A stretch of DNA of 64,000 bases from Blastocatellia bacterium. GTDB lineage: Bacteria > Acidobacteriota > Blastocatellia > RBC074. A program made the translations under genes and the position numbers. Numbering within the stretch: position 1 is the first letter of the stretch; every line of letters begins with the position of its first letter. Where the stretch lies: assembly GCA_038211695.1 (NCBI GenBank), contig JBBQVH010000010.1:2825-66824 (forward strand). Direction: 5' to 3'. The notes under the pieces were generated by a model. It saw nothing but the letters and a program-made list of their open reading frames with translations, had not been told where the DNA came from and ran no database searches. Positions 31,041-61,587 of this stretch are shown in pieces.

Positions 31041-31042
31041 CC

Positions 31043-32798: not shown

Positions 32799-33919
32799 AC
32801 TGATGTTACGCAGTGGCCAATTGTGACTTCAACTTGACAAGCTCGGCGTAGGCGGATTTTACCGCCGACAGATAGAGCTTGGATTTCAAGGCGAAGTGGT
32901 TGAGCTTGGTCTTTATTTTGAGCTTCTCCAGTTTGATATAAGCGCACAAACTGGCAAATAGATGATTGCGTTGACTCGTCTCGGTGCGCGTCGGCGACTT
33001 CTCCGGCGAGGCATTCTGCTTGAGCGATTTGTGGTAGACCTCGATGCCCCATCGTTTTTGAAAGAGCTTCGCGATACGGTCAGCGTTGAGCGTCAAGTCG
33101 CTCGTCACCAGGTAGCGCACGCCCACCGAGCCGTCTTCGTTTTTGAAGATCTGCTTGAGCAAGAGGACTGCAAAAGGCACGCCCTCGAGCCAAACCTGGC
33201 GGGTTGTGTCTGCTGGCAAATCGAGTGTACTGACTGCCACGTAGGGACCGCGTTGATTGTCGGTTTCGCCCAAGGCCACCTTGCGGTTCTCCTTGAGCGG
33301 CATGATGAAGTCTTTCTTGAGATCGAGTTTGATGAACTTCATATTGTCGGCGGACGCATACCAGAGGTCATTGAGCACGTATTGGAAGAGCACCTGATTA
33401 TGCACCGCCACGCGCAGCAACATCCGGTAACGCTGGTTTTTGGTGATCGGAGAGCGACGCGCGGGTTTTGCCGGTCTTGGCGTCAACATATTCTTCTGTC
33501 TTCTCGACCGGATCGAAGGCAATCGGCAAAGACACTTCGCCGACGTTATAGAAAGCCGTCAAGAACTCGATTCCTTTGACGTGCCTGCTCAGAGAATGGC
33601 TCCAGTGCCAGCAGATAATGTCATTCTGGTCGGTGTAGAGCTTCTTGCTCAGAGAGTCATCAATGCTGATGACCCCGTCCGGACGTTCGATCTGACGGAC
33701 AAGCGGTTTGCTGACGCGCCACAAATCGGCACTGGTCTTGGGAGCATCGGCAAGCAGGCGGGTCACCTGATCGTGGCTGACCTGACCGTCAAGCATCCGC
33801 GCCATCCCGGTTGCAGTCGCTGGCCCGAAGCTGCTGATCAAGAAGTCAGTGTAGAGGTCGAACAGTTCATCATTCATCTGTCAAGTTTACTCTTGGCAGC
33901 CCGACTGCGTAACATCAGG
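32799..33919 (-). mobile_element. Insertion sequence (about 1.12 kb, IS5/IS4-superfamily) with 15-bp perfect terminal inverted repeats. The transposase is split by a frameshift (33398..33877 and 32806..33522).
   Basis: IR-L aaCTGATGTTACGCAGTgg (32799-32817) against IR-R ccgACTGCGTAACATCAGg (33901-33919). C-terminal ORF contains FQKRWGIEVYHKSLKQ (a DDE transposase signature). The two ORFs overlap out of frame. Confidence 0.7.
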
Positions 33920-44139: not shown

Positions 44140-45549
44140 ATGTTCGACAAGTTTCACGAAGAGTGTGGGGTCTTCGGCATCTACGGACGCGAAGAAGCCT
44201 CGCGGTTGTCCTATCTGGGGCTGTACGCGCTGCAACATCGCGGGCAGGAGTCCGCAGGCATTGTTTCTTCTGACGGGACACGGCTGTATTCCGACCGCGG
44301 AATGGGGCACGTCGGCGATATCTTCAAGGAAGAGAATTTGGTGCGATTGCCGGGTCGTCTGGCCATCGGCCACGTCCGCTATTCGACCGCTGGAAAGGTC
44401 AGCATCAACGAAGCGCAACCGTTCGCGGTCAAATGCAGCTTTGGCCAGATCGCGCTTTGCCACAATGGCAACCTGCCGGATGCGACCGAATCGCGCTACC
44501 AGCTTGAACAGGACGGCGCGATTTTTTCTTCCACCTCTGATACGGAAGTCGTGCTTCATCGCATCGCGCGTTCGCGCGCGGGCAGCGTGGTAGAAGCGAT
44601 TACCGAAGCCTTGCGGAACGAAGACGGCGCATTTTCGATGTTATTCGCCACGCCCAACAGCTTGATTGCCGCGCGCGATCCGCGTGGATTCCGCCCGCTG
44701 TGTATGGGCGAACTGGAAGGCGCGACGGTCTTCGCTTCGGAGACCTGCGCGTTCGATCTGATCGGCGCGAAATACGTGCGCGATGTTGCGCCGGGCGAGA
44801 TCGTCGTCGTAGATGACTTCGGCGTGCGCTCGCTGCATCCGTTCGCGATCAAGCCGATTTCGCATTGCATCTTTGAGCACGTCTATTTTTCGCGCCCTGA
44901 TTCGCTGGTGTTCGGGCGCAGCGTCAACAAAAGCCGCCACCTGTTTGGCCGCCACTTGGCGCGCGAATGCCCTGCGCCCGCGGACATTGTCGTGCCGGTG
45001 CCGGATTCGGGTGTCGCGGCGGCGATTGGCTTTGCGGCGGAATCGGGATTGAAGTTTCGCTTCGGACTGATGCGCAATCATTACGTCGGGCGCACCTTCA
45101 TCGAACCGCGATCTTCCATTCGTCACTTCGGCGTGAAGATCAAACTGAATCCGGTGCGTGACCTGATCGAAGGCAAGCGCGTTGTGCTGATTGATGATTC
45201 CATCGTTCGTGGCACAACTTCCAAAAAGATCGTCAAGATGGTGCGCGAGGCAGGCGCGCGCGAAGTTCACATGCGCATCAGTTGTCCGCCCACCATTGCG
45301 CCCTGTTATTACGGCGTGGACACGCCAACGCACAAAGAATTGATTGCCGCGCAAAATTCGGTGGATGAGATTCGCGACTATTTGGAAGCTGATTCCCTGG
45401 GCTATCTGAGCATGCAAGGGATGCTGGATGCGGTCGGCGATGGAGGCAACACAAAGTTCTGCACGGCCTGTTACACGGGCAAATACCCGACTCAGCTTGG
45501 CATGAACGTCCAGACGGCGAGCCAGCGCGAAGCGGTTGCGGCGGATTGA
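44140..45549 (+). CDS. purF: Amidophosphoribosyltransferase
   Basis: Propeptide then CGVFGIYG (Ntn Cys); PRTase motif VVLIDDSIVRGTT; C-terminal Fe-S cysteines (CYYGVDTP...CTACYTG). The ORF track extends upstream to 44002. Confidence 0.9.
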   Translation: MFDKFHEECGVFGIYGREEASRLSYLGLYALQHRGQESAGIVSSDGTRLYSDRGMGHVGDIFKEENLVRLPGRLAIGHVRYSTAGKVSINEAQPFAVKCSFGQIALCHNGNLPDATESRYQLEQDGAIFSSTSDTEVVLHRIARSRAGSVVEAITEALRNEDGAFSMLFATPNSLIAARDPRGFRPLCMGELEGATVFASETCAFDLIGAKYVRDVAPGEIVVVDDFGVRSLHPFAIKPISHCIFEHVYFSRPDSLVFGRSVNKSRHLFGRHLARECPAPADIVVPVPDSGVAAAIGFAAESGLKFRFGLMRNHYVGRTFIEPRSSIRHFGVKIKLNPVRDLIEGKRVVLIDDSIVRGTTSKKIVKMVREAGAREVHMRISCPPTIAPCYYGVDTPTHKELIAAQNSVDEIRDYLEADSLGYLSMQGMLDAVGDGGNTKFCTACYTGKYPTQLGMNVQTASQREAVAAD

Positions 45550-45602
45550 AGTTGAAGAACTGTTTGAGACGCGTAAGATGTTTTCCTGAAACGGAGGTCA
45601 TT

Positions 45603-45875
45603 ATGAGTCCGAGAGAAATCTTAGTTGAAATCGGCAAGCTACCTTTTACGGAGAGGCAGCGATTGATCGAAGCATTAACTGGCAATGGGACGGCATCGTC
45701 TCTGTTCAATTCTTCGGGTTCAATCAGCGAGGACGATTTCCATTTGCTTCTTCAAGCCAAAGGAGTGATCACTCTTCCCACTCTGACTGATTATACGGAT
45801 GAGGATGAGGATTTTGAGCCGATTGAAGTCGAGGGAGAACCATTGTCCGAGCAAATCATCAGAGAGAGACGTTAA
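45603..45875 (+). CDS. Putative type II antitoxin (partner of the downstream PIN toxin)
   Basis: Small acidic protein, GGAGG RBS, stop abutting the PIN gene start. The ORF track extends upstream to 45546. Confidence 0.5.
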   Translation: MSPREILVEIGKLPFTERQRLIEALTGNGTASSLFNSSGSISEDDFHLLLQAKGVITLPTLTDYTDEDEDFEPIEVEGEPLSEQIIRERR

Positions 45876-46339
45876 TGGCAGCCTACTTTCTGGACAGCAG
45901 CGCGCTTGTTAAACGCTACGCCCGCGAAACCGGCACGGCTTGGGTAGTCAGCCTTTTCAAACCGGCGGCGGCAAATTTTATTTACGCCGCGCGAATTACG
46001 TTTGTGGAGGTCGTTGCCGCGTTGACGCGACGAACGCGCAGCGGGCGTCTTGTGCCCACCGCGACTGCAAAGTCGCTGATCAGGTTCCGCCGCGCCTTTG
46101 CTGGGAAATTTCTGATTGTGGATGTAACGGCATCATTGGTTGAGAACGCAGCCGCATTGGCCGAAAAGCATGTCTTGCGCGGTTACGACGCCGTGCAGTT
46201 GGCGGCGGCATTGCAAATCAACTCAGATAGATTGGCCGCAGGCACATTGGCGATCACGCTCATCTCAGCCGACGTGACGCTCAATGCAGCGGCATTGGCT
46301 GAAGGCCTCGCGGTGGATAATCCGAATCATCATCCTTAA
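45875..46339 (+). CDS. PIN-domain toxin (VapC-like)
   Basis: YFLDSSALVKRY (the N-terminal PIN Asp), central D...VTASL, and C-terminal acidic residues. Length matches VapC. Confidence 0.7.
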   Translation: MAAYFLDSSALVKRYARETGTAWVVSLFKPAAANFIYAARITFVEVVAALTRRTRSGRLVPTATAKSLIRFRRAFAGKFLIVDVTASLVENAAALAEKHVLRGYDAVQLAAALQINSDRLAAGTLAITLISADVTLNAAALAEGLAVDNPNHHP

Positions 46340-46372
46340 TCAACAAGGCAACCAACTCCCTGACAATCGCAG

Positions 46373-48527: not shown

Positions 48528-51134
48528 ATGGGAAGATCGCTTTTTCATCGCGTGCTCGTATCCGTCTGTTTGTGTGGGCTGCTGCTGCCCGCGCCAGCTT
48601 TCGCGCAACAGTCGCAAGCGCAAACCAAGAAGTTTGACCTGACCATTGACAACATCATGCGCGGGCCGGATTTGGTCGGCTACGAACCGTCGCGGCCTTA
48701 CTGGTCACAAGACGGCCAGCGCCTCTATTTTCGCTGGAAGCGCGCCGGCGAACCGCGATTGAAAGAGCTTGATCTGTATGTCGTCAATCGCGACGGTAGC
48801 GGTTTGCGCAAGTTGACCGAAGACGAAGCGAAGCAGGCGCCGCCAGCGACGGGCGAGTTGTCGAAGGACAAGAAGCTGACGGTTTTTGCCGAAGACGGCG
48901 ACATCTTTCTGTACGACCACGCGAAGAACGAACGCCGCCCGCTTGTCAGCACAACCGAAGGCGAAGGCAGCCCACGCTTCACCGGCGATCAAAAACACAT
49001 TGTCTTCACGCGGCAGAACAATCTTTATTCGATGGCGCTGGATGGCGGATCGCTGGTGCAATTGACGGACGTTCGTACGGGTGGCGGTGCGCCTGAACCA
49101 GCGGCTGCGCAACGTGGCGGCGGCGGCTTTGGCGGAGGAAGGCAGGGCGGCGGCGGCAATGCAATTGGTCAGGGCGGTCAGGGCGGACAAGCTGGACAAG
49201 CTGGACAAGCGCCGCCGCAGACGAGCAGCAGCCAGGACTTCATCAAGAAAGAAGAGCGCGAACTGATCGAAGCCATCAAAGAGCGCGCGCAGAATCGTGA
49301 AGAGCAGGAGGCCAAACGCAAAGCGCGCGAAAAACGGAAACCGTTTACGCCTCCCGCCGGACAAAGCGTTGGCTCTTTGACGCTTTCGCCCGATGGCAAA
49401 CAGGTTTTGGCCACGCTCTTCCAACCTGCCGCAGGCGCGAAAAATATCATCGTGCCGAACTACGTCACCGAATCCGCTTACACCGAAGATATTCCTGGCC
49501 GCAGTAAAGTTGGCGACGCGCAAGGCCGCAGCAGCCTGACAATCCTTTCCGTTGAAACGGGCGAATCGAAGTTGGTGGATCACGGTCAGAAACAAACCAC
49601 CGCACAACAGACAGGCCAAACGCCAGATCAGGGACAAGCTCAAGGGCAGGGACAACAGGGACAGCGCCCACAACCGCGCGCTCAGGAACGCGACCGCGAT
49701 GTGCAATTGATGAATGCGCAATGGGCAGAAGACAGCAAGCACGCCGTGGTCATGGCGCGCGCAGCGGACAACAAAGACCGCTGGGTGCTGCTGGTAGACG
49801 CGGCGACGGGTAAAACGACGTCGCTGGATCACCAACGCGACGAAGCCTGGGTGGGCGGTCCCGGATCGTTCACGCTGGGCTGGCTGGCGGATAACAAAAC
49901 CATCTACTTCCAATCAGAGCGTGATGGCTGGGCGCACCTGTACACGGTTTCTGCCGATGGAGGCGAGCCGAAGCAACTGACCTCCGGCAAATTTGAAGTC
50001 TCCGACGTGCGGCTGTCAGAAGACAAAACGAAGTTTTATTTCACGTCCAGCGAAGGCAGTCCGTTTGAACATCACTTGTATTCAATGCCCGTCGCGGGCG
50101 GCACGCGAACACGCATCACGACAATGGCGGGCGAAAACAACGTGACAATCTCTCCGGATGAGACGATGCTGGCCATTCTGCGGTCATACAGCAACAAACC
50201 GCCAGAGTTATACATCGCGCCGAATAAGACGAACGCAGCCGCCAGTGAGATCAAACAGGTCACCACGTCGCCAACCGAAGAATTCTCAAGCTACAAATGG
50301 ATTGATCCGCCGATTGTCACCTTCAAGGCGCGCGACGGCGCGGAAGTGCCCGCGCGGTTGTACAAGCCCGTCAATTGGCGGCCTGGCGGCCCGGCGGTTT
50401 TCTTCGTTCACGGCGCGGGCTACCTGCAAAACGTCCACAAATGGTGGAGCAGTTATTTCCGCGAATATATGTTCCATCACTTGTTGATGGAACGCGGCTA
50501 CTTGGTAATGGATGTGGATTATCGCGGCTCTGCTGGTTATGGCCGCGATTGGCGCACGGGCATCTACCGGCATATGGGCGGCAAAGATTTAACCGACCAC
50601 GTGGACGCGGCGAAGTACCTGGTGGCCGAGCACGGCGTTGATCCCAAGCGCATCGGATTGTATGGCGGCAGCTACGGCGGGTTCATCACGCTAATGGCGA
50701 TGTTTACAGAAGCTGACGTGTTTGCGGCGGGCGCTGCGCTGCGGCCTGTCACCGATTGGGCGCATTACAATCACGGTTACACGGCGAACATCCTGAATGC
50801 CCCGCAAAACGACGCTGAAGCTTATAAGCTCAGTTCGCCGATCTACTTTGCTTCGGGCTTGAAAGGCGCGTTGTTGATTTGCCACGGCGTGGTGGACGTC
50901 AACGTCAATTTCCAGGATTCGGTCAGGTTGGCGCAGCGGCTGATTGAGTTGAAAAAAGAGAATTGGGAGCTGGCGATGTATCCGGTTGAAGACCACGGCT
51001 TTGTCCAGCCGGCCAGTTGGGCGGATGAGTACAAGCGGATTCTGAAGTTGTTTGAAACCAATTTGAAAAGCAGCGCGACTGTAACGCCAGTGTCTGCCAA
51101 TCCTAAGAGTTCAAACCGCAAGTCGCAGCGCTGA
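48528..51134 (+). CDS. Secreted S9 family peptidase (DPP IV-like, TolB-type propeller) with a Gly/Gln-rich low-complexity insert
   Basis: Signal peptide; catalytic GGSYGGF (Ser), HGVVDVNV (Asp) and EDHGF (His); insert GGGGFGGGRQGGGGNAIGQGGQGGQAGQAGQ encoded by caagctggacaagctggacaagc tandem repeats. Confidence 0.8.
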   Translation: MGRSLFHRVLVSVCLCGLLLPAPAFAQQSQAQTKKFDLTIDNIMRGPDLVGYEPSRPYWSQDGQRLYFRWKRAGEPRLKELDLYVVNRDGSGLRKLTEDEAKQAPPATGELSKDKKLTVFAEDGDIFLYDHAKNERRPLVSTTEGEGSPRFTGDQKHIVFTRQNNLYSMALDGGSLVQLTDVRTGGGAPEPAAAQRGGGGFGGGRQGGGGNAIGQGGQGGQAGQAGQAPPQTSSSQDFIKKEERELIEAIKERAQNREEQEAKRKAREKRKPFTPPAGQSVGSLTLSPDGKQVLATLFQPAAGAKNIIVPNYVTESAYTEDIPGRSKVGDAQGRSSLTILSVETGESKLVDHGQKQTTAQQTGQTPDQGQAQGQGQQGQRPQPRAQERDRDVQLMNAQWAEDSKHAVVMARAADNKDRWVLLVDAATGKTTSLDHQRDEAWVGGPGSFTLGWLADNKTIYFQSERDGWAHLYTVSADGGEPKQLTSGKFEVSDVRLSEDKTKFYFTSSEGSPFEHHLYSMPVAGGTRTRITTMAGENNVTISPDETMLAILRSYSNKPPELYIAPNKTNAAASEIKQVTTSPTEEFSSYKWIDPPIVTFKARDGAEVPARLYKPVNWRPGGPAVFFVHGAGYLQNVHKWWSSYFREYMFHHLLMERGYLVMDVDYRGSAGYGRDWRTGIYRHMGGKDLTDHVDAAKYLVAEHGVDPKRIGLYGGSYGGFITLMAMFTEADVFAAGAALRPVTDWAHYNHGYTANILNAPQNDAEAYKLSSPIYFASGLKGALLICHGVVDVNVNFQDSVRLAQRLIELKKENWELAMYPVEDHGFVQPASWADEYKRILKLFETNLKSSATVTPVSANPKSSNRKSQR

Positions 51135-51151
51135 TTTGTCTGTTGGAGGGG

Positions 51152-54109
51152 ATGCCGGTGGACAAGCCTATCGTTTTTATCAGCTACAGCCACGATTCAG
51201 ACCACCATCGAGAGAAAGTCCTCGCGCTTTCCGAGCGGCTTCGAGATGACGGGATCGAGACGCGCCTGGATCAATACGTGAACGGCACACCCACCGAAGG
51301 CTGGTCACGATGGATGCTCAATCAATTGGACGAAGCGGACTTTGTGCTGGTGATTTGCACTGAAACTTACTACAAGCGATTTCGCGGCTGGGATGAATCC
51401 GCCAAGGGCGTGGATTGGGAAGGCGCGCTGATTACGCAAGACATCTACAACAACAAGAGCAGAACGGTGAAGTACGTCCCCGTTCTGTTTTCAGATGATC
51501 ACCAGCAATTCATTCCCGAACCTATCGGATCAGTGACGCGGTATGTCTTAACTTCTGATTCCAATTACCAAGCGCTTTACGATTTTCTGCTCGGTCAAGC
51601 TGGCGTAGAACCTCGCGCAATCGGCGAACCCAAATTGAAACCCCGCCGCAAAGCCACGCCGCTCAGCTTCGACGACCAACCCACCCAATCCGCCTCAGCG
51701 CAGCGCGAACAGGAGTTGGCCTACCTGGACAATCTCAAGGCTGAACATCTGCGCAAGCTCGACCTATACACGCCAATCAGCGGCGGGTCGCAACAGCAGC
51801 GGCGCGTTCGCATGCACATCGTTTGCGACCTGGAATCGTTTAACAGGGAACAGCCGGTGCGTTCGTTTGTTGACGCTGTCGAAGAGCTTCACCGCATTCG
51901 GCACAGTTCTGGTAATTCCAAGCGCGCGGTTCTGCTGGGCAAACCGGGTAGTGGCAAAACAACCATCCTTTGGAAGTTGGCGGATGATCTGGTCGCCGCC
52001 GCGCGCAAAGACCCTGCGGCTCCGATCCCGCTGCTAATCCGATTGGGCTTCTGGGATCAATCTGACCAGTCCCTGTTTGAATTCGTCGCCGAACAATTGG
52101 AAGAAGTGGGCGGGCTTGGCGATTATCTGGGTTTGTTACTGGCGCAAAAACGCGCGGCGCTCCTGCTGGATGGATTGAACGAACTGCCCGTCGCTGAACG
52201 TCGCAGTAAGTATGCGCAGGTTCGGCAATTCATCGAAGCGCATCCGAAGTTGCTGGCCGTCGTTTCCTGCCGCAAAGACGATTACGCGCCTAATTACGAT
52301 TTCGACCTCGGCTGTGACCGCATCACCATCCTGCCGCTCGACGCCATACGAATTCGCCAGTTTGCGCTGAAATATTTGCCGGAACAGGGCGAAGCTTTCT
52401 TTTGGGATTTGGCCGGAAAAGACACGCGTGGTTATTACGACGATTTCATTGCCACGGTTGGCGCGCCAGATGAAGATCGCTTCTGGCTGGAGCCGCAACC
52501 GCCGCCCGATTTGAAATGGACGTACGACGGGGACACCGAAAACGAATACAGCTATTGGCCACAATGGATCGAACACCGCGATAAGACTGCCAGTTTGATG
52601 ATGTTGGCGTGCAATCCGTACATGCTCTCGATGCTGCTTTACATCTATCAAAAGCAAGGCGAACTGCCTGCCAATCGCGGCGATCTTTTTCAATGGTTTG
52701 TGGAGGTATTGCTGGAACGTGAAGGAATTCTGGCTGACGAGCAGAATCCGTTGGTTGCCGGGCTGGCGCAGGTGGCCTACGCAATGCAAAGCCAGCGCGC
52801 GCCCGGCAACGAAGACAACGAAAACAGTGAAGCAGAGGAAGGCAATGCGCTGACCGTGCTGCCACAAACAGAAGTGCGCAAAATCCTGGATGAACAGTCG
52901 CTCAAGCTGGCCGTCAGCGCCAGCTTGCTCAGTCCGGGTGAACAAGTGCGCTTCACGCATCAACTGTTACAGGAATACTTTGCCGCCTGCTATCTGAAAA
53001 GCCAGATGACCACGGCGCGATCCGATGCCTCGGCCTTCTGGCCGCCGGATCGCTGGTGGCAGCGCACCAACTGGGAAGAAGTCGCCATTCAACTCGCCGG
53101 TTTGTATCCCAAAGATTGCTCGGAAGTCGTCGAATGGATTGCGTCGGCCAACCCGAAAGTCGCCGCACAGTGTGCAACTCGCAGCGGCGCTGCTCCATTG
53201 CCCGCCGCCACGCTTGAAAGATTGCGCGAACAGTGGCGTCCGCGTCTGGAAGGCCCAACAAGCGACACTGAACTTAAAGCGCGCGTAGACATTGGATGGG
53301 CGATGGGATTGCTGGATTTGGACAATCGCCCGGGCGTCGGAGTTGTTGACGGTCTTCCCGACATTGCTTGGGTCGAAATTTCCGACGGCAAGTTCAAGTA
53401 TGGTGATAAGAGTGGATATGCCGCCAAGCCGCGCAAGCTGACGCTGCCTGATTTCTACATCAGTCGCTTTCCGGTGACGCAGGCGCAGTTCAAAACTTTT
53501 CTGGACGATCCGGAAGGTTACGGCAATAGGCAGCGTTGGTTTGAAGGATTGACAGAAGACGAAGACGACCGCCGGATCGAAGAACCTTATTTCAAATTCG
53601 CCAATCATCCACGCGACAATGTCACCTGGTATCAGGCGATGGCTTTTTGCCGTTGGTTGTCGTGGCGGAAAGGCACGACCCACGATCTGGACAAGGTGAC
53701 GGAATGGGCGGTGCGATTGCCAACGGAGTTTGAATGGGAGAAAGCAGCGCGCGGCACTGATGGACGGGTTTATCCATACGAAGGCGATTACGATCCGGCA
53801 AAGGCCAACACCGGCAACACCGGCATCGGCCAGACCAGCGCGGTGGGTATCTTCCCGGACGGTGCATCGCCTTATGGTGTGGAAGAAATGAGCGGAAACG
53901 TCTGGGAATGGTGTCTGAGCAGCCACGACAATCCTGCGGACAAGGCAGAAGATGAAGACTTGCGAACGGACGAAGCTCGCCTCCTGCGGGGCGGTTCGTG
54001 GATCGGCGATCTAGACTTCGCGCGTGCCGTCTATCGTAGCGGCCTTCATCCGGGCGGTCGTGTCCTCATTGCCGGTTTTCGGTTGTTGTTGGTGCGTCCC
54101 CCTTCCTGA
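51152..54109 (+). CDS. TIR - NACHT-type STAND NTPase - FGE-sulfatase (SUMF1-like) domain protein. Candidate anti-phage or immune receptor.
   Basis: N-terminal TIR_2-like segment (IVFISYSHDSDHH...FVLVICTETYYKRF). Walker A LLGKPGSGKTT and Walker B LLLDGLNELP. C-terminus RLPTEFEWEKAARGTDGRVYPYEG...SGNVWEWCLS...RGGSW, the FGE-sulfatase fold. ATG follows a GGAGGGG RBS, 17 nt after the peptidase stop. Confidence 0.8.
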   Translation: MPVDKPIVFISYSHDSDHHREKVLALSERLRDDGIETRLDQYVNGTPTEGWSRWMLNQLDEADFVLVICTETYYKRFRGWDESAKGVDWEGALITQDIYNNKSRTVKYVPVLFSDDHQQFIPEPIGSVTRYVLTSDSNYQALYDFLLGQAGVEPRAIGEPKLKPRRKATPLSFDDQPTQSASAQREQELAYLDNLKAEHLRKLDLYTPISGGSQQQRRVRMHIVCDLESFNREQPVRSFVDAVEELHRIRHSSGNSKRAVLLGKPGSGKTTILWKLADDLVAAARKDPAAPIPLLIRLGFWDQSDQSLFEFVAEQLEEVGGLGDYLGLLLAQKRAALLLDGLNELPVAERRSKYAQVRQFIEAHPKLLAVVSCRKDDYAPNYDFDLGCDRITILPLDAIRIRQFALKYLPEQGEAFFWDLAGKDTRGYYDDFIATVGAPDEDRFWLEPQPPPDLKWTYDGDTENEYSYWPQWIEHRDKTASLMMLACNPYMLSMLLYIYQKQGELPANRGDLFQWFVEVLLEREGILADEQNPLVAGLAQVAYAMQSQRAPGNEDNENSEAEEGNALTVLPQTEVRKILDEQSLKLAVSASLLSPGEQVRFTHQLLQEYFAACYLKSQMTTARSDASAFWPPDRWWQRTNWEEVAIQLAGLYPKDCSEVVEWIASANPKVAAQCATRSGAAPLPAATLERLREQWRPRLEGPTSDTELKARVDIGWAMGLLDLDNRPGVGVVDGLPDIAWVEISDGKFKYGDKSGYAAKPRKLTLPDFYISRFPVTQAQFKTFLDDPEGYGNRQRWFEGLTEDEDDRRIEEPYFKFANHPRDNVTWYQAMAFCRWLSWRKGTTHDLDKVTEWAVRLPTEFEWEKAARGTDGRVYPYEGDYDPAKANTGNTGIGQTSAVGIFPDGASPYGVEEMSGNVWEWCLSSHDNPADKAEDEDLRTDEARLLRGGSWIGDLDFARAVYRSGLHPGGRVLIAGFRLLLVRPPS

Positions 54110-54376
54110 TCACTGTTGGGGGCGGTGCGCGAAGCGCAGGTGCGACACGCGCAGAATCCGCAGTACGCCGAACAGATAGTTGTCCAGATTGCGAATGCCA
54201 TCGAGTTCAGGCGCGGCGAGCGTGAATTGAATAAACGCATCGTGCAGCAAGTCTTCCGCCTGCGCGCGGTCGTGATCGGTCAAATGCAGCGCCCAGCCGA
54301 GCAAGCGGTCGTAACGTTCAGCGAAATGCTCAGCGTGGCTCTTCAAAGCGGGATTGATCTTCAGCAGTTGTAACAT
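54110..54376 (-). pseudogene. ECF sigma-70 fragment (region 2 only), a truncated remnant
   Basis: AERYDRLLGWALHLTDHDRAQAEDLLHDAFIQFTLAAPELDGIRNLDNYLFGVLRILR is sigma-70 region 2. No region 4. Its stop abuts the STAND gene stop. Confidence 0.5.
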
Positions 54377-56939
54377 CGAATAAGAAACTTCCTGGGAGCG
54401 CAGTGCCTCCGCCGCTCGTGATGGTGACGGTCGCCGCGCCGCTGGCCGTGCCCGAAGGTAGCAGATAATTGACCTGTGTCGGCGAAACGAAAAAGAGCGC
54501 CGCCGCACGTTCGACGCCATCGCTGTCTTTCACTTTGGCACTGGTATCAGCCAACTTTATCGGCAGCGGATTCGAGGTGGCTATCTGAGTCGCAGTTGCC
54601 AGCTTTGATCCGAACGCCGCGATGATCGAATCGCTCGCGAAAGCCGAACCGGCGTAGCTGGCGGCGGAAACGTTCGAGATTGGGCGCGTGACTGAGGCGT
54701 CACTGATCTTGCTGACAAAGGCATCCGTCCCCGCACCGGGCAAGTTGCCCAGTCTCTGCTGAAATGCGTTTGAGGTGACCGGGAATTTGTCCGATTTGGT
54801 TTCTCCCGTGACGAAGACGTTGCCGTGTGCGTCTGCCGCAATACCTCTGCCCAACCCCTCGCCTATGACTACGGAATAGATAAACGCGCCGCCCGCCGGA
54901 TCAATCTTTGCCACGAAGACGCCGCCTGTCGCTAGAAACGGATTCTCCGTTGTTGTTCTGACAAACGTGTTGGCAGACACCGTTCCGGCTATACAGGCAT
55001 TACCCCCTGCGCCAACAGCGAGCGATGGCCCGTCATACGGTTCCCCCGCTGCGCCATTGATGTAGGTCGAATAAACGAGCGCGCTTCCCTGTGGATTCAA
55101 CTTCGTGATGAAGGCAGCCTGCGTTGTGGGCGCGCCGATGATCTCTGATTGCAACGCTCCGGGCGTGATCGGAAACCCGTTGCCTTTCGTGGTGATTCCG
55201 GTCACGTAAGCGTTGCCGGTCGCGTCAACCGCGATGCGCCCGCCGAATCCTGCGCCAAGCAGCGTCGAAAACCCAAGCGTTCCATCGGCTTTGAACTTCG
55301 TCACGAACGCCAATCTGTTCTCACCCGATGGGACGCATCCTTGCCCGGTGTCGCGGCGGTATGCGCCCTCGGTCGTTGGAAAAGGCTCAACGGGTGGCGC
55401 GTCGTTTCTGGAGCAGGAAGAACTCGTCGTGCCGCCGACGTAGGCATTGCCGCCTGCGTCCACCGCGATACCCGCGCCCGCCTCTCCGCTGCCGCTACTC
55501 AGGTAGGTCGCGTAAAGCAACTGAGTGGCTGTGGGATTCAGCTTTGCCACGAAGATGCTGCTGCTGGTGTTCTTCATCGTTTTCTGAAAAGCATCGGGTG
55601 TAACCGGGAAATTGCGTGACGATGTTTCGCCAGTCACCCAGGCTTGCCCTTGCCCATCTACAGCGACGCCGTTGCCTTCCGCCGCGCCGCGCCCAAGCAG
55701 TGTTGAATATGCCAATGTCGTGCCCTTGCTGTTGAGCTTGAATACGAAAGCTTCATTGCTGAACTGGCTGGGCAGAGAAAAAGGCTGAATCGTTCCGGCT
55801 GTAGTCGGGAAGTTTTCGCTGTGGGTTTGGCCAGCTACGTAAACGTTGCCCTGCGCATCAACCGCGATAGCCCGGCTGCGATTGTCGAGCGCGTAATTCG
55901 TACTTTGAAAGTCGCGTATGCCGCGCGTCCCGCCGATGATGACTGAATAAAGCACATCGCTACCGTCGGCACTCAGTTTGGTAACGAAGATGAATGCACC
56001 CGACTTGGTCGGCGGAGTCACCGTGGGCGGCGGCGCGCCAGGCACCATCGGGAAAGTGAACGGGAAATTTTCCGACAAAGTAGTCGAGCCGGTCACGTAA
56101 GCATTTCCCTCATTATCCACCGCAATCGCCTGGGCAACGTCCGCGTCCTGCCCGCCGAGAAAGGTCGAATAACTGAGCATTGGGTCTATCACCGGCGGCT
56201 TGCCACCATCGTAACGCGCGATGTCGAAACGCACCTGCTCCCCTTCGATCACGTAGCGACCGGTGATTTCATGCTTCTCGCCTTTTGTTTCCTGGTAAAC
56301 GAACGGTTTGGGCTGCCGCACTTCTCCCGCGCCGGTTTCGATCAGCAAATCGCCATCGGCTGCCAGCCCCAGCCTGCGCGCGCCCTTGAACCGCAGCTTG
56401 ATCGCCCGCGGATTCGCGCCCGGCGCGATGACGAAATCGTATTCAAGCTGCTGCCGTTCGCTGCCCCCGCCGTAAAAGAGCAGGTCAATGCCCGGATAGA
56501 CGGCTTCGTATTTGATCCCGGCGTACAGCGGCGCGTTCGTCACCCACAGCCGAGGATTGTCGCCGAGAAAGTAATGGCTCTTGCCCGGTAATTCGCCCAC
56601 GCCGCTGATGCGCGGTTGCGCGTTGGCACCGGCGAATTGCAGGCGAACCGGCCCCGCCGCCGCTTCTGTTGCCGTGAAAAAGAGCGCGCCGCCGCGCCCG
56701 CGGGCGATGAACTTGACGACGGACTGCGCCTGTCCGCGATTGGCCTCGAAGTGAAGTGGCGTCTGGCCGTAGGCAGCGTGATGTTCCGACACGGTTCGAT
56801 TGCGGCGCGGCGATGGGCTGCCGTCCGTGCCAGTGGCTTTCGACGCCTGCGGTAGCGATGCACCGAACGTAAAGGCGGCCAGCAGCCAGACCAGCAATCT
56901 TGAGGCGCATAATGAAAGTGAGGAATATGGGTGTTTCAT
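54330..56939 (-). CDS. Secreted SBBP (beta-propeller) repeat protein with a truncated Solibacter-type C-terminal domain
   Basis: Signal peptide, then more than 10 repeats of the G(N/Q)AYVTG...(S/T)xNFPxTxxAFQ type. The C-terminus aligns to only the first half or so of the C-terminal domain of the neighbouring paralogue, then stops. Confidence 0.75.
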   Translation of the reverse strand: MKHPYSSLSLCASRLLVWLLAAFTFGASLPQASKATGTDGSPSPRRNRTVSEHHAAYGQTPLHFEANRGQAQSVVKFIARGRGGALFFTATEAAAGPVRLQFAGANAQPRISGVGELPGKSHYFLGDNPRLWVTNAPLYAGIKYEAVYPGIDLLFYGGGSERQQLEYDFVIAPGANPRAIKLRFKGARRLGLAADGDLLIETGAGEVRQPKPFVYQETKGEKHEITGRYVIEGEQVRFDIARYDGGKPPVIDPMLSYSTFLGGQDADVAQAIAVDNEGNAYVTGSTTLSENFPFTFPMVPGAPPPTVTPPTKSGAFIFVTKLSADGSDVLYSVIIGGTRGIRDFQSTNYALDNRSRAIAVDAQGNVYVAGQTHSENFPTTAGTIQPFSLPSQFSNEAFVFKLNSKGTTLAYSTLLGRGAAEGNGVAVDGQGQAWVTGETSSRNFPVTPDAFQKTMKNTSSSIFVAKLNPTATQLLYATYLSSGSGEAGAGIAVDAGGNAYVGGTTSSSCSRNDAPPVEPFPTTEGAYRRDTGQGCVPSGENRLAFVTKFKADGTLGFSTLLGAGFGGRIAVDATGNAYVTGITTKGNGFPITPGALQSEIIGAPTTQAAFITKLNPQGSALVYSTYINGAAGEPYDGPSLAVGAGGNACIAGTVSANTFVRTTTENPFLATGGVFVAKIDPAGGAFIYSVVIGEGLGRGIAADAHGNVFVTGETKSDKFPVTSNAFQQRLGNLPGAGTDAFVSKISDASVTRPISNVSAASYAGSAFASDSIIAAFGSKLATATQIATSNPLPIKLADTSAKVKDSDGVERAAALFFVSPTQVNYLLPSGTASGAATVTITSGGGTALPGSFLFDVTTAEDQSRFEEPR

Positions 56940-56956
56940 AGTTCGTCTCTCTGGCT

Positions 56957-59900
56957 TTACTTAATCCACACTTTGACCGGGTTGGCCGGTTTGCCTTCCA
57001 CGCTCAGGGTGAAATCCACTTCGCCCCGGCCCGCCAGGGCGCGCGGCAACAGTAAATTGACCTGGTCCAGTCCGGCGAATTCGCCTTGAGCTCCCGCGAA
57101 GATCACCTGTGTGCTGACGCCGCCGAACTGTGCGCTGACGGCGGTCATCGCGCTGCGATTGCGAACGCCCGTGCCGAAACTGATCAGGTAAACCTGCTCG
57201 GTCGCTGCTCCCAAATCAATTGGAATCGGCACCAGTTTGTTTTGCATCGCATCGAAACGCGCGATGGGTTCGTAGCTTTGCGCGCCGTTGGCTTTGACGC
57301 GCAGCGCCACGCCCGCCAACAAACCGCGCCCGCTGGCATCGGCGGTGAACAATCCCGGCGCGGTCGCTTCGATCTGTAATCCGGAGCCGGATGTCATGCC
57401 ATCACCGCTGGTAATGACAACCGTGGCCAAGCCCGGTGCGACTTCCGGTGGAATCAGATAGTTGACCTGCGTCGGCGAAACGAAAAAGAGCGGCGCAAAA
57501 TACTCCTCGCTGCGGCTGTCCCGAATGATGACCGTTGTGCCGACCAGATACACCGGTAGCGGCATGGACGCCGCCACTTGCGTTTCCACCGCCAGTTTCG
57601 CGCCGAAGGCCGTGACAATTGAATCGGCGGCGAACCGCGTTGAGTCGTAACTGGCGGCGGAAAGATTCGCCAGTGGCTGCGGCAGAGGGGATCGCTTGAA
57701 GTGGGCGGACTGATTGGTACTCAAATTGGTGAAAGTTTGACTGCGCGGCACGAAATCCAGGCCCCCTTGTTTGGCGGGCGAAACCGTGTAATTCCCGCCA
57801 CCGGGCAAATCCTGGAACGAGTAGAACCCTTGCGAATTGGTTGTCGCCGTGGCCGTGCGTCCGCCGCTCAATCCCACTTTGGCGCCACTGAGGCCTACAT
57901 TGTTATCGTCCGTCAGATAACCGCTGATCTGAAACTTGTCCCCTGGCAGGGCAACCAAGGTGAAGAGAACGGTCTGACTTTCGCTGAGGTTATTGATGGT
58001 GAAGCTCGGCGGGCTGAAGGTGCGCCCGGGGAGCGTCGCGGTAATGACGTAGTTACCACCCGACGGCAAGTCTCCGAAGAGTATACCGCCGATGATATAC
58101 CCCCGGGTGCCACTGGCCGTGCCCATACAACTGAACTCCACGGACGGGATGGCGTATCCATTGGCGTCTAACGCCTTGGCAGCAATCTCGTAGGTGCTGG
58201 GGCGGGGGATTGGCGTCGGCACAGGCAGTGGCGAAGGAATCAATGGCTCGGCATTGGGCGCAGCGGCGATTTTCGTGGCGAAGGCATGGTTGTAGCCTTT
58301 GCCGGAGCCGGGCGGCAACTCTGTCAGTCCTTCGTAATGGGGCTGATAAGAACCGGGCGTCGTGGCGTAGCCAAATCTCGCGCCGCCAGTGATGTAGGCA
58401 TTGCCCACCGGGTCAAGGGCAATTCCATATGCGCGGCTGTCGTTGTTGCCAATCATCGTTGAATAAATCAGCCCGGTGCCCGCCGGGTTGAACTTGGTCA
58501 CGAATGCTCCCTTGCCGGTGGCAACCGGGCGATAACTGTCTGAGGTGACCGGGAAGCGTGGGGAGAATGCATAGCCGGTTACATAGGCGCTGCCCGCCGC
58601 ATCCACCGCGATGCCTCTGATCACCTCACGGTCATCCAGGCTGCCGAAGTACGTGGCGTAAACTAGTGCCGTCGCGTTCGGGTTGAGTTTCACCACAAAG
58701 CCGTCCGTGTTGGGGAAATCGCGATTGGGGCTGCCGCCTGTCGGCTGAAATGCGCCGGGCGTGGTCGGGAACTTCTCCCATTCACACGCGCCAGCGATAT
58801 AAGCATTGCCCTGTGCATCCACGGCAATGTGCTGATCCCAGTTGGAAAACGGCGCAACACCCAGCGTCGTCGAGTAGGCGAGCACGCCCGCGGCGCTGAA
58901 CTTTGTGACGAAGACATAGCCGGGCGCGTGATAAACGCCGGGCGTCAAAGGGAAACTCGTTCCGAAGTTGCGCCCGGTGACGTAGGCGTTGCCTTGCGCA
59001 TCCAGCGCGATGCCAGACCCCACGCCGCCAGCGGTGCCTTCAGTCGGGCTGAACGTGCCGCCCAAATAAGTCGAATAAAGCAGCGCACTGCCCGTCGCGT
59101 TGAGTTTGGTGACGATGACCGGCGCGCCGCCTTTGCTCAATTGTTGATATGCGTTCAAGGTTGTCGGATATCCATTGCCCGACGAAACACCAGTAATCCA
59201 AGCTTCGCCGGAGGCGTTGACCGCAATGGCAAAACTTTTATCACTACCAACGCCACTAAGTAACGTGGCATAGGCCAGCGCATTGCCGCTCGCATTGAGT
59301 TTAATTACGAAAGCATCCGTAGGCGGATGGCGGTCGTCAGTCCCCGGTGCGATGGTGCGCTGAAAGGCGTTGGGCGTCGTGGGAAAGTTCGCCGTCGTCG
59401 TTTCGCCCGTTACGTAAGCATTCCCCTGCGGGTCCACCGCGATTCCGTAAGCGCGGTTGTCCAGATAAAGGATCGGATTGCTGTCCGCTCCGTTGGAGAC
59501 ATAAAAACCGTTCGTGCCGCCGATCAACGCGGAATACAGCGCCGTGCTACCCGTGGGATCGAGTTTAACGACGAAGACGAATTGCGCTGACGGGGCAGGG
59601 TTTGTCTGCCTGACCGCGCCAGGCGTCGTTGGAAACTCACCGCCGCCATAACCGGTGATATAAGCATTGCCCTGCGCATCTACCGCAATTGCTTCGCCGT
59701 GTCCTGCGCCGCCGTTGCTGGTTGCGCCCAGATACGTGCTGTAGCTGAGCACAGGGTCAATCACCAGCGGGCGGCTCGCATCGTACGCGCCAACCCCGAA
59801 TGCGACTTCGTTTTTGCCCCGCAGCAGATAAGCGCCGACGACCTGCTGTCTGCGCCCGCCAATTTTCTGATAAACGACGGGCCGGTGCTGCCGAACTTTC

Positions 59901-60628
59901 CCAGCCGTTGTTTCAATCAGCAAATCTCCCTGTTCATCAAGCCGCAACTTCCGCGCGCCCGCAAAGCTCAGCTTGATGCGCTTTGGATCAGCGCCGGGTG
60001 CCAGGCGGAAGTCGTATTCCAGTTGTTGCTGATTGCCGTAGTAAATAACATCAATGCCCGGATAGACGCCTTCGTATTTGACCCGTGCGTAATTGGGCAC
60101 ATCGGTCTTCCACCCGTTGGCGTCGCTGCCGAGGAAGTAGTTGCTCCTGCCAGGCAGTTCGCCCGCGCCGGTGATGCGCAGATTTTGATTCGCGCCCGCG
60201 AGTTTCATTCGCAGAGTGGCCGATTGTTGGGTTGATTGCGGAGCGCGGAGTTCCGGCGGCGCATCAAGAGAGTTTTGCGCGCTCCCCATTGACCTTGAGC
60301 CGAAATCCGCTTTCCGCAATTCCATGACCGCCTCGTTGGCGGTCAGAAAGAAGGTGTAGTCTTGTCCGCGCGAAAGGAATTTCACACGGGCGGAGGTCTG
60401 TCCTTGATTGGCTTCAAAGCTTAACGGCAACTTGCCGTAATTTTCCTGGATCAGTGCTTTCTTTGCCGAGTCATTCGCGGCGGGTTTGTTCCCTTCGGCG
60501 CTGGCCGCCATTGAGCTTCCGAAGATCGGTTTCGGCCACGATGCTTGTAAATTCAGCGTCAACAAACAGATGGCCAACATGGCCTTCAGGTGGGATTTCC
60601 GGTGATTCGTAAATTTCATGAGATTCAT
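56957..60628 (-). CDS. Large secreted SBBP repeat protein with CarboxypepD_reg-like domains and a complete Soli_cterm-type C-terminal domain
   Basis: Signal peptide; many GNAY(V/I)TG...FPTTPGA repeats; FQISGYLTDDNNVGLSGAKVGLSGGRTATATTNSQGFYSF (CarboxypepD_reg); C-terminus ...QVIFAGAQGEFAGLDQVNLLLP...FTLSVEGKPANPVKVWIK. Confidence 0.75.
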   Translation of the reverse strand: MNLMKFTNHRKSHLKAMLAICLLTLNLQASWPKPIFGSSMAASAEGNKPAANDSAKKALIQENYGKLPLSFEANQGQTSARVKFLSRGQDYTFFLTANEAVMELRKADFGSRSMGSAQNSLDAPPELRAPQSTQQSATLRMKLAGANQNLRITGAGELPGRSNYFLGSDANGWKTDVPNYARVKYEGVYPGIDVIYYGNQQQLEYDFRLAPGADPKRIKLSFAGARKLRLDEQGDLLIETTAGKVRQHRPVVYQKIGGRRQQVVGAYLLRGKNEVAFGVGAYDASRPLVIDPVLSYSTYLGATSNGGAGHGEAIAVDAQGNAYITGYGGGEFPTTPGAVRQTNPAPSAQFVFVVKLDPTGSTALYSALIGGTNGFYVSNGADSNPILYLDNRAYGIAVDPQGNAYVTGETTTANFPTTPNAFQRTIAPGTDDRHPPTDAFVIKLNASGNALAYATLLSGVGSDKSFAIAVNASGEAWITGVSSGNGYPTTLNAYQQLSKGGAPVIVTKLNATGSALLYSTYLGGTFSPTEGTAGGVGSGIALDAQGNAYVTGRNFGTSFPLTPGVYHAPGYVFVTKFSAAGVLAYSTTLGVAPFSNWDQHIAVDAQGNAYIAGACEWEKFPTTPGAFQPTGGSPNRDFPNTDGFVVKLNPNATALVYATYFGSLDDREVIRGIAVDAAGSAYVTGYAFSPRFPVTSDSYRPVATGKGAFVTKFNPAGTGLIYSTMIGNNDSRAYGIALDPVGNAYITGGARFGYATTPGSYQPHYEGLTELPPGSGKGYNHAFATKIAAAPNAEPLIPSPLPVPTPIPRPSTYEIAAKALDANGYAIPSVEFSCMGTASGTRGYIIGGILFGDLPSGGNYVITATLPGRTFSPPSFTINNLSESQTVLFTLVALPGDKFQISGYLTDDNNVGLSGAKVGLSGGRTATATTNSQGFYSFQDLPGGGNYTVSPAKQGGLDFVPRSQTFTNLSTNQSAHFKRSPLPQPLANLSAASYDSTRFAADSIVTAFGAKLAVETQVAASMPLPVYLVGTTVIIRDSRSEEYFAPLFFVSPTQVNYLIPPEVAPGLATVVITSGDGMTSGSGLQIEATAPGLFTADASGRGLLAGVALRVKANGAQSYEPIARFDAMQNKLVPIPIDLGAATEQVYLISFGTGVRNRSAMTAVSAQFGGVSTQVIFAGAQGEFAGLDQVNLLLPRALAGRGEVDFTLSVEGKPANPVKVWIK

Positions 60629-60984
60629 TGCAACTACTCTCCAGCTTTAAGATTGAGCAGGTTGGGAAAAGAGAAACAGCTTGTATGGACGATCGGGCCT
60701 GGTGAAGATCGGTGGCGGACTGCCTTGTCATTGCCACTCACACCATAGTGGTCGGAACTTGGGGCAATCCCACACGGGCGAAGAAATTTAATTTGCGCCT
60801 CCTGGTGTACGCACAGCCTCCGGAGTGCGGACTTGTTTGAAGAGCCATTTGAATTCCACCAGGCCTGCCCGGCCACGCCTACACGCCGGAGGCGGTGTGT
60901 ACTCAGGCTGTCTTGCAAGTTCTACGGCGTGGGCGAATAATCCCGCGCTTCTGACATCAATCTAAAAATCTGTGACGCCATTTT

Positions 60985-61587
60985 ATGAAGCGAATTGGAA
61001 TTTTGATCTCAGGTCGCGGCTCGAACATGGTTGCGATTGCCGAAGCCGCGCGCGACGGGCGCATCGCAAATGCCGAAGTCGCGCTGGCCATCAGCAATAT
61101 TGAAACAGCGGCGGGGCTGCGGCGGGCGCGCGAGATGGGCATCCCGACGTTCGTTCACAGCCATCGCGGCTCGACGCGCGAACAGCATGACCGCGCGATG
61201 GCGGCTGAGCTTCGCGCCCGCGAAGTTGATCTGGTCTGCCTGGCCGGTTATATGCGGTTGCTCTCGCCGTGGTTCATTCGCGAATTCGAGCATCGCATCT
61301 TGAACATTCATCCATCATTGCTTCCGGCCTTCCCCGGCCTGGACGCGCAGAAACAGGCGCTGGATTACGGCGTCAAATTCACCGGCTGCACGGTGCATCT
61401 GGTGGATGAGGAATTGGATCACGGCCCGATCGTCAAACAATCAGTCGTGCCGGTGATGACGGGCGATACCGTCGAAACTCTTTCTGGCCGCATTCTTGCC
61501 GAAGAACACAATGCCTACAGCGAAGCCGTTGCGCTGATCGTCGGCGGAAAGTTTCGGATCGAAGGCCGTCGTGTGATTGAGCTTTGA
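60985..61587 (+). CDS. purN: Phosphoribosylglycinamide formyltransferase
   Basis: RIGILISGRGSNM...CLAGYMRLL...NIHPSLLPAFPG. Confidence 0.9.
   Translation: MKRIGILISGRGSNMVAIAEAARDGRIANAEVALAISNIETAAGLRRAREMGIPTFVHSHRGSTREQHDRAMAAELRAREVDLVCLAGYMRLLSPWFIREFEHRILNIHPSLLPAFPGLDAQKQALDYGVKFTGCTVHLVDEELDHGPIVKQSVVPVMTGDTVETLSGRILAEEHNAYSEAVALIVGGKFRIEGRRVIEL

Follow-up and report, generated by a model that had tools for sequence, protein, structure and literature searches.

What is a gene for a putative immune receptor doing between an S9 peptidase gene and purN on a contig of a Blastocatellia bacterium, and what would determine the specificity of its product? The question is raised by positions 51152 to 54109 of a 64,000-nucleotide stretch of contig JBBQVH010000010.1 (assembly GCA_038211695.1, Acidobacteriota), hereafter called the window. 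An initial annotation, made from the sequence without database searches, had proposed that this gene encodes a TIR-NACHT-FGE-sulfatase STAND NTPase that acts as an anti-phage sensor and that was acquired rather than inherited. Here, we show that the gene encodes a SEFIR–NACHT–FGE protein, and that the end of its sensor domain bears the signature of a variable region of a diversity-generating retroelement (DGR). In the reading that we favour, the gene, which resides in a strain-specific insertion, encodes an NLR-like receptor of the "antigen receptor-type", a STAND/NACHT protein of the cytoplasm whose specificity would have been written by a DGR and which would cause abortive infection through SEFIR-mediated depletion of NAD+. 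We estimate the probability of this reading at about 0.6.

Results

Domain architecture

The gene (51152..54109, plus strand; SEFIR–NACHT–FGE, with the FGE part also termed FGS) is one long uninterrupted open reading frame (ORF), which according to the ORF list and the translation extends from a TTG at 51143 or an ATG at 51152 to position 54109, and which from the ATG encodes 985 aa. An identical product is present in a public protein collection (P0001), where it is annotated with 983 aa, implying that the GTG at 51158 was taken as the start codon. A Shine-Dalgarno-like run, GGAGGGG, is located just 5' of both the ATG and the GTG, and either codon may be the start. The gene was delimited on the basis of the ORF list, the translation, P0001 and an AlphaFold2 model generated from 90 homologues (mean pLDDT 87.6, pTM 0.78); the reading frame and all of its motifs are intact.

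The protein has a three-part, NLR-like layout in which an effector of the STIR superfamily (TIR/SEFIR) is followed by a NACHT NTPase and by a C-terminal sensor with the fold of the formylglycine-generating enzyme (FGE). The NACHT/STAND architecture of the immune type that the initial annotation had recognized is thereby supported, and the layout fits the published "antigen receptor-type" class of bacterial NACHT proteins.

The NACHT nucleotide-binding domain (51926..52285, plus strand; aa 259–378) matches Pfam model PF05729 with a score of 32.7 bits, the cut-off being 26.7. The two motifs quoted originally were both borne out, namely the Walker A motif GKPGSGKT (nt 51938–51961, plus strand; aa 263–270) and the Walker B motif LLLDGLNE (nt 52160–52183, plus strand; aa 337–344). 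Residues G268, K269, D340, G341, N343 and E344 do not vary among 20 homologues. According to the secondary structure of the model, the next part of the protein (52286..53368, plus strand; aa 379–739) is composed of NACHT-associated helical and winged-helix domains and a helical linker. Since no repeat family was detected in it, the "helical repeats" that had been proposed for this part (aa ~380–735) were replaced by these domains. A Foldseek search of the PDB with the central part of the protein retrieved NLRC4 (3.6e-11), NOD2 (7.3e-11) and NLRP3 (1.3e-8), as well as NLRP7 and NLRP9, with E-values overall between 4e-11 and 2e-8. NCBIfam gave a weak match to the NACHT antiphage protein EruA at aa 481–622, and a literature search found nothing on "EruA". 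When 1.84 billion representative proteins were searched with aa 181–740 as the query, 338 clusters were found at E≤1e-30 and 1930 clusters at E≤1e-10, which shows that the NACHT clade is sizeable.

The C-terminal part (53369..54085, plus strand; aa 740–978) is a single FGE-sulfatase fold (FGS, C-type-lectin-like), which matches PF03781 with an E-value of 1.1e-43. In sequence searches of the PDB and in Foldseek searches it resembles ToxD, EgtB, OvsA, CalU17, PvdO, FGE and TvpA, and the TvpA structure 2Y3C was matched with E=1.9e-13 at the sequence level and with a TM-score of 0.67 (to the target) by Foldseek. When aligned with the C-terminal sequence of human FGE, which had been checked against PDB chain 2AII_X beforehand, the protein has Gly and Ala at the positions of the active-site residues Cys336 and Cys341, and no conserved Cys is found at the FGE catalytic positions in the family as a whole. 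Because both catalytic cysteines are absent, we take the FGE fold to be a binding module, and not an enzyme. The EgtB equivalog model TIGR03440 scored 71.6, the cut-off being 360; this score and the missing Cys336 and Cys341 rule out a catalytic function of the FGE or EgtB kind. EgtB needs a DinB-like iron-binding domain, and no domain of that type was detected N-terminal to the FGE fold. Thus, of the SUMF1/EgtB-like C-terminus proposed initially the fold stands and the enzyme competence does not. The name that the NCBI gives to relatives of the protein, "SUMF1/EgtB/PvdO family nonheme iron enzyme", is misleading for the same reason.

The N-terminal effector

The effector domain, including an extension, occupies aa 5–201 (51164..51754, plus strand). 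Its core, aa 8–137, matches the Pfam SEFIR model with E=1.5e-16 and 61.4 bits, and in PADLOC the bSEFIR model aligns to aa 5–201 with 4.5e-45. A search of the PDB by sequence found the Bacillus SEFIR entries 5Y8E and 5Y8F (E=2e-13), which were the sole solved structures that we found. The Pfam TIR_2 model, which corresponds to the domain type originally assigned, also matches (aa 8–134, E=2.1e-10), but with 41.6 bits its score is below that of SEFIR. In the published description of the SEFIR defence system, an N-terminal SEFIR match exceeding the TIR match is the criterion for assignment. It could be argued that the protein nevertheless combines a TIR_2-type NADase with a ligand-sensing and possibly enzyme-competent SUMF1/EgtB-like domain, as the TIR_2 match is significant in its own right and the NCBI name of the relatives refers to an enzyme. 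We consider this very improbable: SEFIR outscores TIR_2 in the Pfam, PADLOC and PDB searches alike, and the lack of the two FGE cysteines and of a DinB-like-type domain, together with the EgtB score far below its cut-off, argue against the enzymatic part.

SEFIR and TIR domains belong to one superfamily. Consistent with this, an hhalign comparison of 32 SEFIR homologues with the TIR domains of paralogues gave a probability of 97.9%. In this alignment the catalytic Glu of TIR domains (motif S·WV··E) corresponds to D97 of the window protein, a position that among the 32 SEFIR homologues is occupied by E (22), D (5), A (4) or Q (1). E90, which is part of a DWEG motif, is invariant in all 32 homologues and is also present in the sequence of the Bacillus structure; it lies within a SEFIR-specific insertion or loop that has a low pLDDT in the model. 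D40 is likewise invariant (32/32) and aligns to D37 of BcSEFIR. A D40A mutation abolished defence in the SEFIR protein tested, that of Bacillus sp. NIO-1130, and on the basis of numbering and motif, and not of a direct alignment, D40 of the window protein is probably the counterpart of the mutated Asp. Bacterial SEFIR has been reported to be a defence effector that cleaves NAD+ to ADP-ribose and nicotinamide; a literature search for the SEFIR catalytic residue found nothing.

These data also bear on the possibility that the SEFIR domain is an adaptor rather than an enzyme, and that after oligomerisation of the NACHT module it would recruit a separate SEFIR or TIR effector through homotypic contacts. 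In animals, the interleukin-17 receptor recruits Act1 in such a way. Several observations are compatible with an adaptor role: D40, which is needed for defence, had been chosen as a SEFIR–SEFIR contact residue; in paralogues the position of SEFIR is taken by EAD8, a pure adaptor domain; and both D97 and E90 are candidates for the catalytic residue of SEFIR. Nonetheless, we regard this role as unlikely, given that according to published reports the SEFIR domain is itself responsible for the loss of NAD+ in bacterial SEFIR defence, that E90 is invariant in the 32 homologues, and that the insertion in which the gene resides (see below) contains no partner gene with a SEFIR, TIR or EAD domain.

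A variable region at the 3' end of the gene

Judged by comparison with templates from other genomes, the last ~120 nt that encode the sensor are a DGR-type variable region (53983..54103, plus strand; aa ~945–984). The templates come from two related loci in two other genomes, L089 and L001. Compared with the L089 template, the window gene is mismatched at 21 of 27 adenine sites vs 15 of 94 other sites (Fisher p=3.8e-9), and compared with the L001 template at 20 of 26 adenine sites vs 13 of 95 other sites (Fisher p=1.7e-9). In other words, the non-adenine sites of these foreign templates are matched to 84–86%, whereas their adenine sites are mismatched to 77–78%. Codon reading places ten residues of the window protein at AAY codons of the template: G952, D953, F956, S964, G965, L966, G970, V972, L973 and I974.

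A second line of evidence is provided by the pattern of identity to the relatives. At the amino-acid level the variable region is less conserved than the FGE core (46–56% vs 65–70%), whereas at third codon positions it is more conserved (71–85% vs ~53%). Low amino-acid identity combined with high third-position identity fits the templated rewriting of the first two positions of AAY codons; ordinary divergence would give the opposite pattern. Across the family, aa 951–970 are the most variable stretch of the FGE domain, and they are situated at the place of the FGE active-site cysteines. The peptide RGGSW…ARAVYR…GFR, encoded by the DGR variable region, is equivalent to aa 946–977 of the window protein.

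Two elements at or next to the 3' end of the variable region are shared with related loci. Firstly, comparison of the 3' ends of variable regions and templates at eight related loci identified a motif resembling an initiation of mutagenic homing (IMH) site. The target type of this motif, GCGTCCCCCTTC, ends every variable region examined, including that of the window (54094..54105, plus strand), and templates have GCGTCCCACTCC in its place. As L089 reads the same nucleotides in another frame, the motif is conserved at the level of the DNA. Secondly, a GC-rich hairpin sequence with a GAA loop, TGCGC-GAA-GCGCA (54126..54138, plus strand), is located ~20 nt 3' of the variable region. The hairpin GGGGCGGTGCGCGAAGCGCAGG is also found 3' of the variable regions of loci L090 and L091, the sequence TGCGCGAAGCGCA at window positions 54126–54138 being common to both, and related versions are present in L089, L001 and L008. 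It should be noted that the folding energy of the hairpin alone is not significant (z = –1.07), so that only its sequence conservation counts as evidence.

Related loci as DGR targets and effector turnover

Several relatives of the gene are accompanied by DGR components. L089, which encodes a protein 50% identical to that of the window (P0014), has two convergent NACHT–FGE genes around a bAvd gene and a 126-nt repeat. The mismatches between this repeat and the 3' ends of the two genes are at adenines in 13 of 14 and 11 of 12 cases; mismatches confined to adenines are the defining mark of a DGR template, and this confirms that the L089 genes are DGR targets. At L001, which encodes an EAD8–TIR–NACHT–FGE protein (48% identical), the mismatches with the template are A-specific in 12 of 13 and 15 of 16 cases, and an RVT_1 reverse transcriptase and an Avd homologue are present. 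A-specific template mismatches were also found at L009 (21/22). Reverse transcriptase or Avd homologues adjoin relatives at about ten further loci, among them L084, where remnants are present next to a homologue of the SEFIR type.

These remnants, and those of L089, are degraded fragments of DGR reverse transcriptases adjoining NACHT–FGE genes (L089 11120–11407 and L084 12994–13170); L089 still keeps its template and Avd beside the degraded fragment. These fragments suggest that the DGRs of the NACHT–FGE family often decay and leave behind targets without one. At L090 and L091, NACHT–FGE paralogues are arranged in convergent pairs; the 3' ends of the paired genes are alike to 88% and 78%, respectively, over ~140 nt, and no template was found in the stretch between the paired genes at either locus. 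A Y1 transposase lies between the pair of L091, and L090 adjoins a cluster of Ser/Thr kinases, a PP2C phosphatase and an FHA–trypsin gene.

A direct view of how such genes change is offered by L081 (4241–7282) and L083 (10001–12970), which are orthologous SEFIR–NACHT–FGE genes located at the same chromosomal site, with the same neighbours, in two genomes. Their identity is 85–97% in the body of the gene and 97–100% in the 3' flank, but falls to 47–67% in the SEFIR part and to 73% in the variable region, where one of the two has a 9-nt deletion. Thus, the two ends of the protein change more quickly than the chassis. No DGR was found within 10 kb of either gene.

The turnover of the N-terminal end is also apparent among more distant relatives. 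Homologues that have a 50–67% identical NACHT–FGE body carry SEFIR, TIR, EAD8 plus TIR, EAD8 alone, an α/β-hydrolase or a GT4-conflict domain, and the SEFIR domain of the window protein is 60–71% identical to SEFIR domains on TPR or AAA_16 proteins. The N-terminal effector is therefore swapped on a constant NACHT–FGE chassis, as is typical of conflict systems. The best full-length match of the window protein other than itself is 57% identical, and a scan of genome contigs found no relative above 48% identity. The relatives occur in scattered taxa, among them Acidobacteriota, Chloroflexota, Accumulibacter, Zoogloea and Nitrosomonas, and in unrelated contexts.

Genomic context

We compared the region by blastn with four related contigs, L085–L088. 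Nucleotide homology of 76–84% extends over three stretches of the window (43.1 kb to 45549, 46372 to ~51070, and, with L086–L088, 60971 onward), which are separated by two breaks (45550–46371, a PIN-domain module, and 51072–60970, ~9.9 kb). The second break is a lineage-specific insertion between the S9 peptidase gene and purN (51072..60970), and the NACHT gene is at its left edge. Homology ends at 51068–51071 in all four comparisons and resumes at 60971–60983 in L086–L088, where the gene order is purF, a metallo-beta-lactamase (MBL)-fold gene, purM, S9 and purN, and where S9 and purN are separated by only 20–55 nt. In the window, purN (60985–61587) is followed by genes for a sigma-54 regulator and a kinase, in the order seen in L088. 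L085, the closest contig, has yet other content after the S9 gene, and the junction is therefore variable. No flanking direct or inverted repeats were detected at the borders of the insertion, and no integrase or transposase within it. The adjacency of S9 and purN in L086–L088 supports the view, as suggested initially, that the gene was acquired and is not ancestral; nor is it a uniformly conserved core gene.

As had been noted, 17 nt separate the ATG from the end of the upstream S9/DPP-IV peptidase gene (48528–51134), and the signal-peptide-like N-terminus of the peptidase fits the earlier description as secreted; the peptidase has many orthologues in metagenome-assembled genomes of Blastocatellia (70–87% identity). 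A sigma-70-like promoter site for the NACHT gene itself was sought and none was found, terminator-like matches near the gene were no commoner than in shuffled sequence, and co-transcription with the S9 gene is possible. A search for RNA families in the 43–64 kb part of the window found none.

On its downstream side, the gene converges on a truncated sigma factor of the extracytoplasmic function (ECF) type (54110..54376, minus strand; 88 aa from Met49). This remnant has region 2 only and no region 4, Pfam Sigma70_r2 being matched at residues 69–130 of a 136-aa ORF, and its stop codon abuts that of the NACHT gene. The truncation point of the sigma gene coincides with the start of the conserved 3' flank of the NACHT gene, which suggests that the arrival of the NACHT gene, or a later recombination, truncated it. 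The next two genes, both on the minus strand, are long and intact ORFs that encode DUF7948/SBBP proteins of 869 aa (54330–56939) and 1223 aa (56957–60628), the latter also with a CarboxypepD_reg domain. The "degraded neighbours" mentioned in the initial annotation are thus limited to the sigma remnant. The two DUF7948 genes, with SBBP beta-propellers, are tandem paralogues in which an internal 38-nt repeat, present in 13 copies, corresponds to the propeller unit; no link between them and the NACHT gene was found.

Other parts of the neighbourhood also contain mobile or conflict-type content. The second lineage-specific insertion, of ~0.82 kb (45546–46339), separates purF from the MBL-fold gene, has no counterpart in any of the four related contigs, and encodes a PIN-domain protein of 154 aa preceded by a 109-aa ORF without family; the pair is probably a toxin–antitoxin system of the VapBC type. 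L085 contains, just upstream of purF (2999–6307), a TPR–CHAT (caspase-like) protein and a C11 peptidase, which are not in the window and which are another conflict-type insertion in the same neighbourhood. Further away, at 26632–33522 of the window, is an island of low GC content (0.47–0.49 vs ~0.55 elsewhere). It encodes a 726-aa GHKL-type ATPase (HATPase_c_3 and HATPase_c) with a weak PADLOC match to "REase_II" and a 384-aa protein without family, followed by a C5 cytosine methyltransferase truncated to its N-terminal half (261 aa) and two DDE transposase ORFs. In this form it resembles a restriction-modification or defence island that was carried by an insertion sequence element and has decayed.

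Discussion

In the mechanism that we propose, the variable surface of the FGE fold would bind a non-self ligand, most likely a phage protein. Binding would lift autoinhibition, upon which the NACHT module would bind ATP and oligomerise, and the SEFIR domains clustered in this way would become active NAD+ hydrolases. The depletion of NAD+ would then halt the infected cell and phage spread would fail, which amounts to abortive infection. The specificity of the receptor would be written by mutagenic retrohoming from an AAY-rich template. For ligand binding, NACHT oligomerisation and NAD+ hydrolysis by SEFIR, we infer by analogy that they occur in this protein.

Several points weigh against this reading. 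Firstly, the Walker B motif, D340-G-L-N343-E344, deviates from the signature D[GAS]hDE that is given for bacterial NACHT proteins in the passage of Kibby et al. that deals with it (preprint 10.1101/2022.07.19.500537), in that Asn replaces the first acidic residue. Because Asn343 is invariant in the 20 homologues, this deviation is a trait of the whole family. Secondly, the match to the PADLOC bSEFIR model covers only positions 38–224 of 412 and does not amount to full-length similarity, and both candidates for the catalytic residue of SEFIR are tentative: E90 lies in a loop modelled with low confidence, and the residue at the TIR-equivalent position is Asp. Thirdly, selection on binding residues could partly account for the excess of mismatches at adenine sites, although it leaves the raised identity at third codon positions unexplained. 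Fourthly, a PADLOC search of the neighbouring genes in the insertion retrieved no defence proteins. Fifthly, a blastn search with positions 53600–54109 against all 64 kb for a template returned only the self match, and a tblastn search of the 64 kb with the reverse transcriptase and Avd proteins of relatives gave a best E-value of 0.8. Finally, CLec–STAND proteins are called experimentally uncharacterised in the part of Doré et al. (PMC10907252) that describes them.

The fifth point defines the gene as a target without a local DGR, and leaves two ways to account for the variable region: either the gene is served in trans by a DGR located elsewhere in the genome, or it is the frozen product of past diversification. 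In the latter case the architecture would be the same, but the DGR would have been lost or left behind, and the gene would either encode a sensor of fixed specificity or be drifting towards decay. We see this as a real possibility, although it falls short of being our preferred view. The lack of a template, of Avd and of a reverse transcriptase in the window is what it would predict, and the 3' end of the gene abuts a truncated sigma gene at the place where relatives have a DGR cassette and a convergent paralogue. The reverse transcriptase remnants beside the relatives in L084 and L089 point in the same direction, as does the 9-nt deletion in the variable region of one orthologue, since DGRs do not make such deletions. 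On the other hand, neither the ORF nor any of the motifs is disrupted, the hairpin and the target-type 3' motif retain their exact sequence, and the search for a DGR covered 64 kb of the genome only. Moreover, L081 and L083, which have no DGR within 10 kb, differ mainly in their variable region, while their 3' flanks are 97–100% identical.

The exact retention of the 3' motif and hairpin and the behaviour of L081 and L083 would fit a live, "remote" target, the ten AAY-derived codons of which would be rewritten in trans by a DGR at some other site in the genome, which probably serves other unlinked copies too. We put this forward as a tentative and rather doubtful proposal. If it were true, the cell would possess a dispersed and continually diversified set of NLR-type receptors that act through NAD+ depletion, which would be an adaptive-like arm of bacterial immunity.

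A different question is whether phage is the trigger at all. The protein might be a sensor for cell death or kin recognition in aggregates, or a sensor of another invader or of an environmental molecule. According to the relevant part of Doré et al. (PMC10907252), DGR-diversified STAND–CLec proteins show an enrichment in bacteria that are multicellular or form aggregates, and the window offers no defence-island context. Against this, the bacterial NACHT and SEFIR proteins that have been tested act against phage, and STAND clades with an FGE sensor are discussed among the defence-associated sensor types (Nature 2026). We find a role other than anti-phage defence decidedly unlikely, and consider it more likely than not that the gene encodes an anti-phage receptor of the antigen receptor-type.

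DGR-diversified NACHT receptors with an FGE sensor are the closest bacterial analogue of antigen receptors proposed so far, and they are known only from comparative genomics. The window gene extends the class to Acidobacteriota, and the comparison with its relatives shows the swapping of SEFIR, TIR, EAD8, hydrolase and GT4 domains on one chassis. As a single polypeptide of 985 aa that has an effector from a family reported to deplete NAD+ and a tip of ten variable codons, and whose gene has no overlapping partner genes, the protein would be a practical experimental construct. It is suited to asking whether the FGE tip sets specificity, whether NACHT oligomerisation activates SEFIR, and whether diversification occurs in trans without a local DGR. 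Our assessment is that specialists would not be surprised by the gene, and that its value lies in being a clean construct for a first experimental look at this class of receptors.

Comparison with known systems

The closest known counterpart is the "antigen receptor-type" class of NACHT proteins that Kibby et al. (10.1101/2022.07.19.500537) define, in the section of their preprint concerned with it, by a single C-terminal FGS domain. That the FGS sensors of NACHT proteins are likely diversified by DGRs is a computational prediction, found in the pertinent passages of Kaur et al. (2020, PMC7159879), Kibby et al. and Doré et al. (2024, PMC10907252). The window protein shares with this class the order of effector, NACHT and single C-terminal FGS domain, the shuffling of the effector among NAD+-targeting and adaptor domains, and the predicted DGR diversification. 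It differs in having a SEFIR effector, whereas the passages in question of Kaur et al. and Kibby et al. name TIR and Sirtuin among NAD+-targeting effectors, and in its Walker B sequence (DGLNE vs D[GAS]hDE); the class itself is known from computation.

Doré et al. (PNAS 2024, PMC10907252) also describe, in the part devoted to it, DGR clade 5D with paired STAND(NACHT/nSTAND1)–CLec targets, some of which have TIR. L089 and L001 have precisely the layout of such loci, each with two convergent NACHT–CLec targets around Avd, template and reverse transcriptase. The window gene, by contrast, is present as a single copy, has no DGR within –51/+10 kb and has a SEFIR effector. Its host is an acidobacterium, and the string "Acidobacteri" is absent from the text of Doré et al. 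FGE-sulfatase-like domains are also included among the STAND sensor types in a 2026 survey (Nature 2026).

With bSEFIR of Bacillus sp. NIO-1130 (Millman et al. 2022) the protein has in common an N-terminal SEFIR domain, the conserved D40 and a strong PADLOC match, and depletion of NAD+ is expected in both cases. The similarity is limited to the part of the bSEFIR model given above, and the NACHT and FGE domains lie outside that model. TvpA (Treponema denticola variable protein 1, 2Y3C) has the same FGE-type CLec fold and likewise has its variable region in the C-terminal part, at the place of the FGE active-site cysteines. However, this DGR variable protein is a lipoprotein of the cell surface and has neither NTPase nor effector modules, whereas in the window protein the fold is the sensor of an intracellular NTPase. 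The Avs/AVAST proteins (Gao et al. 2022) are similar in being STAND NTPases with an N-terminal effector, a C-terminal sensor and ligand-induced oligomerisation, but their sensors are TPR-like and not of the FGE fold. A comparison with the Avs clades, which the initial annotation had suggested, showed that the protein is not a member, the best PADLOC Avs match being to Avs2 with only E=0.013 and 11.2 bits. Thus, the window gene is a further member of an already predicted class and not a new kind of system, and what is particular about it is the combination of a SEFIR effector, an acidobacterial host and a DGR-type variable region with no DGR nearby.

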